This document shows positions 9,748 to 10,324 of a DNA stretch of 12,562 nucleotides, piece after piece (positions within the stretch are counted from its first letter, which is position 1; every line of letters begins with the position of its first letter). The notes below the pieces were generated by a model. That model was not told the DNA's origin. It worked only from the letters and a program-made list of their open reading frames with translations, and ran no database searches. The position numbers and the translations under genes are program-made. The stretch lies in the IMG/VR virus record IMGVR_UViG_2531839666_000031, one strand, 5' to 3'. Source of the stretch: a virus. Lineage: Duplodnaviria; Heunggongvirae; Uroviricota; Caudoviricetes.

Positions 9748-9860
9748 AGCTACCTAACCCATAAAGGAAAATAAAAATACTCCCGAAGGAGTGGTTATCA
9801 GTCGCTTCGATGTTTTTACCCGATAACGAATTATGTAGTCAATATCAAAGGTAAGGTTAT

Positions 9861-10043
9861 ATGACATTCGTTCATACAATGCTGCTTTATTTCTGCGCAG
9901 TGGTCAGTGCGTTATATCTGGTGAGCGGCGGTTATAAGGTCATCAGAAATTATATTCGCCGTAAAATTGATGATGCGGCAGCTGAAAAACTCAGTAAAAC
10001 AGCACAGGCACCGTCATCCCCAAACGACCCGACCCCGCTCTGA
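9861..10043 (+). CDS. Small hypothetical protein (60 aa) with one predicted N-terminal transmembrane helix
   Basis: ATG preceded by AAGG..AAGG; residues 5-23 hydrophobic (MLLYFCAVVSALYLVSGGY) followed by a basic stretch; AT-rich context typical of phage accessory genes. Confidence 0.4.
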   Translation: MTFVHTMLLYFCAVVSALYLVSGGYKVIRNYIRRKIDDAAAEKLSKTAQAPSSPNDPTPL

Positions 10044-10078
10044 TAACGGGGCAATATACCTGCAAAAGGAGAATATTC

Positions 10079-10324
10079 ATGCCAGAGATTAAAGGCACGG
10101 TTACTGAAGAGCTTGTCAAACAGGCACTTTATTCTGAAGAAGTGAACCGCGTGCTGAAGGCGCAGGTTCGCAAGGATTTTGAGGCACAAATCGACGCATA
10201 TGTTGATGAAGTGCTGGCCCGAATGGTTGGCCATTCTCCGGCTGAAAACAGCACGGAGAATGAGCCTCAAGCCGTAGAGCAACCAGAGCCGGTTCAGCCC
10301 GGAACTGACGGTACTATGATGTAA
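10079..10324 (+). CDS. Small acidic hypothetical protein (81 aa)
   Basis: Strong ribosome-binding site AAGGAG 7 nt before the ATG; 16 acidic versus 7 basic residues; followed by a hairpin at 10334-10353. Confidence 0.5.
   Translation: MPEIKGTVTEELVKQALYSEEVNRVLKAQVRKDFEAQIDAYVDEVLARMVGHSPAENSTENEPQAVEQPEPVQPGTDGTMM

Follow-up and report, generated by a model that had tools for sequence, protein, structure and literature searches.

DUF1378 and DUF826 close an esterase gene block shared by Mu-like and lambdoid phages and may act late, close to the membrane

We analysed two small adjacent genes, ORF1 and ORF2 (ORF, open reading frame), in the 12,562-nucleotide (nt) viral record IMGVR_UViG_2531839666_000031. 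This whole stretch, hereafter the window, corresponds by its sequence to the right-hand end of a Mu-like Escherichia coli prophage of the Sp18 type. The two genes are, with near certainty, members of the phage gene families DUF1378 and DUF826, and they complete a block of three genes (esterase, DUF1378, DUF826) that is found in lambdoid as well as in Mu-like phages, two unrelated backbones. We propose that their products would be late-phase, membrane-proximal accessory factors which tune lysis or an envelope step and act as satellites of the lysis cassette. DUF1378 would be an inner-membrane protein exposed on the cytoplasmic side, DUF826 would be a cytoplasmic helical protein, and both would be expressed late, together with the esterase. 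Taken as one statement, identity, block and role fall somewhat short of an even chance in our estimation; the lysis- or envelope-tuning role by itself, drawn from gene neighbourhood only, is tentative and held with low confidence. Positions of all features are collected in Table 1.

ORF1 matches Pfam DUF1378 (PF07125) with E 1.2e-38 and 131.5 bits, its residues 1-59 covering profile positions 1-59 of 59, and phrog_494 with E 3.5e-34. ORF2 matches Pfam DUF826 (PF05696; E 2.1e-15, 57.1 bits, residues 1-54 on profile positions 1-56 of 75) and, across its full length, phrog_311 (E 2.6e-30); the Pfam gathering cut-off is 25 bits for both families. No Pfam family other than DUF826 was found for ORF2 at E up to 1, and NCBIfam held no informative match for the pair. 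RefSeq already labels both window proteins by family (WP_000144787.1 and WP_001114103.1). Compared with homologues at 39-56% identity, a distance at which synonymous changes are saturated, ORF1 shows nonsynonymous differences (pN) of 0.31-0.36 against synonymous differences (pS) of 0.66-0.85, and ORF2 a pN of 0.32-0.42 against a pS of 0.63-0.74; for close DUF826 alleles dN/dS is 0.3-0.6. Both genes are under purifying selection, and since pN lies far below pS and the Pfam and PHROG matches are strong, they are more than chance ORFs.

A first-pass annotation of the window, made from the letters and predicted ORFs, had described a single-helix membrane protein of 60 amino acids (aa) and a strongly acidic one of 81 aa with a charge of about -9, each with its own ribosome-binding site, as small accessory phage genes of unassigned function. 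All of this is borne out; the family matches are to domains of unknown function (DUFs). The annotation had also made its reading depend on conservation of the ORFs in related prophages, and conserved they are. What does not hold is its view of the module as undescribed, because families and proteins are already catalogued, annotated in RefSeq and mentioned in print (PMC10462455).

In ORF1, whose net charge is +3, strongly hydrophobic 19-residue windows (Kyte-Doolittle 1.5-1.8) are confined to the N-terminal ~25 residues. A transmembrane (TM) helix is predicted at about residues 3-24, with the motif SGGY (22-25) at its cytoplasmic end and a basic helix at 26-45. Invariant in the DUF1378 alignment are M1, LYF, the hydrophobic stretch, SGGY, R29, R33, I36-D37, A40 and E42-K43, followed by a variable C-terminal tail of Pro/Ser/Gln character. 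All charges lie C-terminal to the TM helix, in a region carrying K26, R29, R33, R34 and K35; according to the positive-inside rule, DUF1378 is therefore a predicted bitopic inner-membrane protein with its N-terminus out and its C-terminus in, and with nearly no periplasmic part.

ORF2 is devoid of any hydrophobic segment, and its net charge of -9 (7 K+R, 16 D+E) is divided between residues 1-50 (-3) and the tail (-6). An AlphaFold2 (AF2) model built on an 18-sequence alignment has a mean per-residue confidence (pLDDT) of 72 and contains helices at 10-17 and 20-50; pLDDT reaches 93-97 at residues 21-50 and falls below 50 over most of 56-78. Sequence and model together suggest a soluble cytoplasmic protein. 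Its core would consist of a single long amphipathic helix, and the tail behind it (51-81, with MM as the last two residues) appears acidic and disordered. Hydrophobic residues recur at every fourth position (V22, L26, V30, F34, I38, V42, L46), and beside this face runs a conserved stripe, K27-R31-E35-D39-D43; the placement of K27/R31 and D39/D43 would suit antiparallel self-pairing of the helix. Throughout the family a helical core of 50-55 aa is conserved, core and tail being acidic in every member, while the tail, for which MM, ML or MQQ is a frequent ending, can be as short as 5 or as long as 87 residues and is nearly absent in Salmonella-type members. The family is small. When 1.84 billion representative proteins were searched with a profile, 59 clusters came up, each of them either a small protein of this same type or coiled-coil noise; source names and phage hosts are enterobacterial. 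Distant DUF826 genes (loci L009, L010, L015, L018 and L062; for example L018, 3950-4183) have an in-frame upstream extension of 16-20 aa with similar sequences (MWITDWLFS..., MKITQWLKS...) before the MPE(I/V)KD start, and may begin earlier, with an extra N-terminal peptide. The label "head completion protein", attached in RAST style to some DUF826 records, was considered and found unsupported.

Such an acidic protein could be imagined as a DNA mimic of the Ocr/ArdA type, as the first-pass annotation had suggested, with restriction enzymes or some other DNA-binding protein as its target, and the acidity of every family member in both core and tail agrees with this. Strong net negative charge is, however, all that DUF826 shares with Ocr and ArdA. 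Neither of these families nor any other besides DUF826 was matched, the best PDB sequence-profile hit had E = 1.1 (none below E = 1), and Foldseek returned 0 PDB matches for the model, in which a long helix with a disordered tail takes the place of a compact, rigid, DNA-shaped surface. Moreover, the most acidic part of the protein is the least conserved one, and the likely late expression would be the wrong timing for anti-restriction. We regard DNA mimicry as very improbable.

The gene preceding the pair encodes a NanS-p-type sialate O-acetylesterase (Pfam: SASA E 5.5e-12, DUF6645 E 4e-70), 52-78% identical to NanS-p/YjhS-type enzymes in 348 phage records, nearly all of Shiga toxin (Stx) phages. 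DUF1378 homologues are present in 309 phage records with a matching organism profile. Among the best 80 IMG/VR loci carrying DUF1378, the order esterase-DUF1378-DUF826 was found in 79, the exception being a locus that ends 200 nt upstream; hence the self-contained two-gene cassette of the first-pass annotation has to be redrawn as the distal part of a three-gene block. The block is followed by holin S in about 51 of these loci (47 with lysozyme also in range) and by com and/or mom in 23, with or without a gene resembling ECs_4996. Typical spacers measure 135-167 nt between esterase and DUF1378 and 19-40 nt, always short, between DUF1378 and DUF826.

The neighbours of the block in Stx and other lambdoid phages are stx on one side and pinholin S on the other; in the window they are gin and com-mom, with neither stx nor a lysis cassette. 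The annotated order in phage ArgO145 is stxA, stxB, SASA esterase, DUF1378, DUF826, holin, lysozyme, and PhiR5_2 is alike. ArgO145 gp76 (YP_009907913, DUF1378/phrog_494, upstream of holin S) has the same 59-60 aa layout as ORF1 and also follows a NanS-p-type esterase; N-terminal TM helix, SGGY and a basic helix with ID..A.EK are shared. ORF1 differs from the Stx-phage DUF1378 proteins in sequence (~51-52% identity), in its Mu-like host phage and in that no holin follows. ArgO145 gp75 (YP_009907914, DUF826/phrog_311), encoded directly after DUF1378, has the same helical core and an acidic tail ending in MM/ML; ORF2 is only ~40% identical to Stx-phage DUF826, and length and sequence of the tail differ. 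The Stx-phage region Q-stx-nanS-p-...-S described in PMC10462455 contains the block with the gene order and spacing of the window. That paper mentions both DUFs between nanS-p and S, assigning no function, and is the only literature on DUF1378 or DUF826 that our search found.

Between the window and lambdoid alleles, identity is 60-71% for the esterase, ~51-52% for DUF1378 and 39-54% for DUF826, values low enough to indicate that the block is old on both backbones and has not been transferred recently. The first ~64-105 residues of the window esterase do not align with Stx-phage NanS-p, alignments beginning at residue 65 or at 95-108, so the Mu-like version seems to carry a different N-terminal module. 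Mu-like prophages of STEC799 and JNEC-KY203 encode an esterase 62-64% and a DUF1378 54-56% identical to those of the window, together with a DUF826 that is 95-98% identical. Across 42 distinct blocks, Spearman correlations of pairwise identity are 0.47 for esterase-DUF1378, 0.46 for DUF1378-DUF826 and 0.14 for esterase-DUF826. Evidently, the block is internally mosaic and its alleles recombine independently. Plasmids seldom carry either small gene, and where they do, it resembles a piece of prophage or chromosome.

The constancy of the block raises the question whether membrane protein and acidic partner are helpers of the esterase, which lacks a signal peptide, and anchor it, regulate it or aid its release. 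Co-occurrence of the three genes on both backbones speaks for this, as does the way Mu-like prophages exchange esterase and DUF1378 alleles together while DUF826 stays nearly constant. On the other hand, many phages carry both small genes without any esterase, the esterase is also found without them, the correlations above reflect free recombination, and the block could have travelled merely as one contiguous piece of DNA. A helper function is, in our judgement, decidedly unlikely.

Next, we examined signals of expression. No sigma-70 promoter-like site was detected by a scan of the window from the esterase to ORF1, and an own promoter of the pair was rejected on this ground; in other lineages there are weak, ambiguous promoter-like matches. 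The sole plus-strand terminator candidate between esterase and ORF1 (9788-9808) is irregular and weak (fold z -1.45) and overlaps the second hairpin of Table 1. Downstream of DUF826, the stretch 10320-10375 folds with -21 kcal/mol whichever strand is taken (z -3.1 and -3.4), and the hairpin located there is likely a bidirectional terminator marking the end of the plus-strand unit. Missing promoter, weak terminator, the 35-nt spacer between ORF1 and ORF2 and the hairpin after ORF2 together suggest that the pair is transcribed with the esterase, esterase-DUF1378-DUF826 most likely being one plus-strand late transcription unit. In lambdoid phages the block would lie inside the Q-dependent late transcript which runs on into S. 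Expression of nanS-p rises 10- to 250-fold (1-2.4 logs) on mitomycin C, and its control by Q was deduced by the authors from conserved position (PMC10462455).

The hairpin right after the esterase stop codon (z -4.1, with -30.5 kcal/mol for the fold of 9708-9800) follows an A7 tract, has no T-run behind it and would thus terminate minus-strand transcription only. One alike in shape and position exists in ArgO145 and PhiR5_2; nothing is annotated on the minus strand at the counterpart hairpin of lambdoid Stx phages. Together with the second hairpin, it forms a tandem of minus-strand terminator-like structures (9716-9792) separating esterase from DUF1378.

We have shown so far that the small genes travel with the esterase; they are nevertheless not an obligate pair. 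DUF1378 occurs without DUF826 in 34 of 44 loci examined and DUF826 without DUF1378 in 61 of 64, the distant DUF826 subgroup (66 loci) being mostly stand-alone. Loci L061, L062 and L065 have the genes in reversed order (DUF826, DUF1378); they lack the esterase, and a tail-fibre assembly gene precedes the pair. A lone DUF1378 with tail-fibre or tail-fibre-assembly genes on one side and Dam methylase on the other is seen in Cedecea neteri and about ten loci of myovirus type. Esterase-less myovirus-type prophages (L154, 4696-6719; L156, 5001-7408) have DUF1378, with or without DUF826, in an accessory cluster at the tail-fibre-distal end, its neighbours being a minus-strand acetyltransferase/acyltransferase-like gene and a Dam-type methylase.

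This separability bears directly on the proposal that the two genes constitute a toxin/antitoxin-like pair, a membrane toxin with its acidic neutraliser. Two small genes 35 nt apart, one of which encodes a membrane protein, would fit it. Each gene, however, is found alone in dozens of loci, where a stand-alone toxin would not be tolerated, and the order can be reversed; no known toxin or antitoxin family was matched in Pfam or PADLOC, and AF2 lends no support to a complex. We consider this pairing extremely improbable. Fold, variability of the tail and stand-alone occurrence disfavour it along with the DNA mimic, and the first-pass annotation had listed both.

Several arrangements point towards the lysis cassette. 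At least four independent ones have one or both genes abutting it. Among these is the place of the block ahead of pinholin S, and one shows translational coupling to Rz: in 23 lambdoid loci (L163-L185) with the order holin, SAR-type lysozyme (SAR, signal-anchor-release), Rz, DUF1378, the start of a lone DUF1378 overlaps the Rz stop (ATGA), which implies late co-expression. In L221 DUF1378 comes after endolysin-Rz. DUF826 alone lies ~0.6-1.6 kb downstream of endolysin in about 40 loci, and in the three of them read in detail (L018, L015 and L057) it comes after Rz/Rz1; a terminase small-subunit gene follows it directly in L018 and within ~0.7 kb in L057, not in L015. Probable late expression, dispensable and separable genes, inner-membrane and cytoplasmic products and adjacency to the lysis cassette are the reasons why we rank a role in lysis or an envelope step first.

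Other observations speak against this role. Unrelated accessory genes such as stx, nanS-p and bor typically accumulate on either side of the lysis cassette and behind the tail-fibre genes, so that position by itself proves no part in lysis. Adjacency to the cassette is a property of lambdoid relatives; in the Mu-like prophage of the window the pair is ~26 kb away from the Mu-type lysis genes, the Sp18 lysozyme and endopeptidase genes being located upstream, just after the late activator. Searches of Pfam, PHROGs, NCBIfam and PDB revealed no homology to a holin, antiholin, spanin or releasin, and the small TM protein with a charged C-terminus that DUF1378 shares with the holin/antiholin type is a generic design which does not discriminate. 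Some Stx phages lack both genes: in Stx2 phage 86, S begins 150 nt past the esterase, and in Stx1_EH1992 a 447-nt gap without any conserved ORF follows it. As these phages have the same esterase and pinholin, any role of the pair must be dispensable. There is also no computational support for a DUF1378-DUF826 complex. The AF2 model of P0191, a natural read-through fusion of the C-terminal half of DUF1378 with DUF826, gained no confidence (predicted TM-score, pTM, 0.29; helix confidence below that of DUF826 alone), a weak negative result given the unpaired alignment and truncated DUF1378.

Two further candidates for a link between the proteins were tried and rejected. The fusions P0172 and P0179, each from a single-member cluster, arose by read-through after a 1-nt frameshift at the 3' end of DUF1378 and do not count as evidence of interaction, and homology of the DUF1378 cytoplasmic helix to the DUF826 helix, hinted at by MAFFT, received an hhalign probability of 4%.

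Small single-pass membrane proteins of prophages are often exclusion factors. The pair could accordingly be protective genes expressed in the lysogen, the membrane protein mediating superinfection exclusion or both genes countering host defence, as the first-pass annotation had proposed. Besides this known tendency, their positions in accessory hot-spots (after tail fibres and around the lysis cassette), the hairpins which bracket them and the narrow, mosaic families, as often seen in accessory genes, are in favour. Against lysogenic expression speak the lack of a sigma-70 promoter-like site upstream of ORF1, the overlap of DUF1378 and Rz in one lineage and the location inside the Q-dependent late transcript of lambdoid phages. 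Nor is the GC content foreign: ORF1 has 47% GC and ORF2 51%, compared with 51.5% for the window, and the AT-rich stretch of the earlier description is real for the 146-nt spacer at 9715-9860 (41%) and does not extend to the ORFs (46% for 9750-10324 as a whole). PADLOC, whose library models defence systems and not anti-defence, gave no match at E up to 1 for DUF1378, DUF826, the esterase or the ECs_4996-like protein. Nothing marks the pair as an anti-defence module and no positive evidence for superinfection exclusion was found; the two possibilities, taken jointly, are unlikely.

Returning to a role in lysis or an envelope step, architectural analogues exist in the T4 antiholin pair RI/RIII and in the releasin of phage Mu, small membrane-anchored and small cytoplasmic helical phage proteins. 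DUF1378 and DUF826 resemble them in that many relatives adjoin a holin or SAR endolysin; they differ in that no sequence or structural homology was detected and the pair is not obligate. T4 RI also acts via a domain in the periplasm, into which hardly any of DUF1378 would extend. DUF1378, anchored in the membrane, and DUF826, helical and cytoplasmic, might even, alone or together, control the timing of lysis in a new way in phages which lyse by pinholins or SAR endolysins; we think this quite improbable. With low confidence we further hold that the pair is not a component of anti-restriction, toxin/antitoxin or esterase-export systems.

Table 1. Features of the window, numbered from its first letter
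Feature	Position	Strand	Basis
NanS-p-type sialate O-acetylesterase gene, 679 aa, SASA/SGNH with C-terminal DUF6645	7675..9714	+	Pfam, phrog_143
GC-rich hairpin right after the esterase stop, A7 before	9720..9748		fold
Second terminator-like hairpin, ACTCCTTCGGGAGT then ATTTTTATTT	9779..9792	-	terminator scan
Shine-Dalgarno-like AAGGTAAGG ahead of ORF1	9848..9856	+	sequence reading; AAGG at 9848-9851 and 9853-9856
DUF1378 gene (ORF1), 60 aa	9861..10043	+	Pfam/PHROG, alignment, hydropathy/charge, pN<<pS
Shine-Dalgarno AAGGAG, 7 nt ahead of the ORF2 ATG	10066..10071	+	sequence reading
DUF826 gene (ORF2), 81 aa	10079..10324	+	Pfam, PHROG, AF2, alignments
GC-rich hairpin separating DUF826 from the convergent minus-strand gene	10334..10353		fold

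The surroundings of the pair agree with the Mu-like assignment. Over positions 9700-10900, identity is 100% to E. coli 2010C-3347 and ~97% to the Mu-like prophage Sp18 of O157:H7 Sakai; out of 5,426 complete E. coli genomes, 222 match this region. Tail-fibre genes and gin come first, then esterase, DUF1378 and DUF826, next an ECs_4996-like gene on the minus strand, and finally com, mom and host DNA. The first-pass annotation had placed the pair between the esterase and com, which is correct on the esterase side; before com, the convergent minus-strand gene (10363-10820) intervenes. It is frameshifted in the window, as it also is in STEC799 and JNEC-KY203, and intact with 154 aa as ECs_4996 in Sakai (phrog_26524). 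The ECs_4996 homologue has a C-terminal CPAC...CPAC zinc-ribbon motif, no Pfam family above threshold and no NCBIfam match, and within the phage collection such genes were seen in Mu-like inserts only. The DNA invertase gene gin (7014-7575) is likewise frameshifted: compared with NZ_CP034806 it has one extra nucleotide near 7312 and 7 single-nucleotide differences, and it is split into ORFs 7014-7364 and 7294-7575. The window is accordingly not strain 2010C-3347, despite their identity over 9700-10900. The prophage is decaying, yet the esterase, DUF1378 and DUF826 genes are intact. Past mom, the host flank (11951-12562, minus strand) appears to encode a reductase-like protein; elsewhere this flank is an Ig-like pseudogene (2010C-3347) or sorM (Sakai), as expected for random insertion of the Mu type.

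Rfam detected no RNA family in 9400-11200. In Stx phages, AsxR and STnc100 lie upstream of nanS-p, outside the region matching the pair; in ArgO145 (L003, 2518-2777) these small RNAs, as identified by Rfam, are located between stxB and the esterase gene, and the window has no equivalent. An antisense ORF of 153 aa (9950-10411) was also considered as a real gene and rejected. It is probably spurious, because it has no family match and its open length is not conserved, homologous loci being open for only 80-124 aa.

Several outcomes are of use regardless of function: the cataloguing is clear, the esterase block has moved between lambdoid and Mu-like phages, the small genes are separable, and the ideas of a DNA mimic and of a toxin/antitoxin pair are unlikely. 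In Stx phages, hundreds of which carry the pair, its location is the virulence region that has been studied best, with toxin genes on one side and lysis genes on the other, the number of E. coli genomes given above referring to the Mu-like form alone. Should the two genes do nothing measurable, they would be conserved accessory passengers. If they affect lysis timing or the envelope, they would have a bearing on toxin release, and if lysis-timing control proved true, they would help to set when Shiga toxin and NanS-p leave induced lysogens of Shiga toxin-producing E. coli, and in what amounts.

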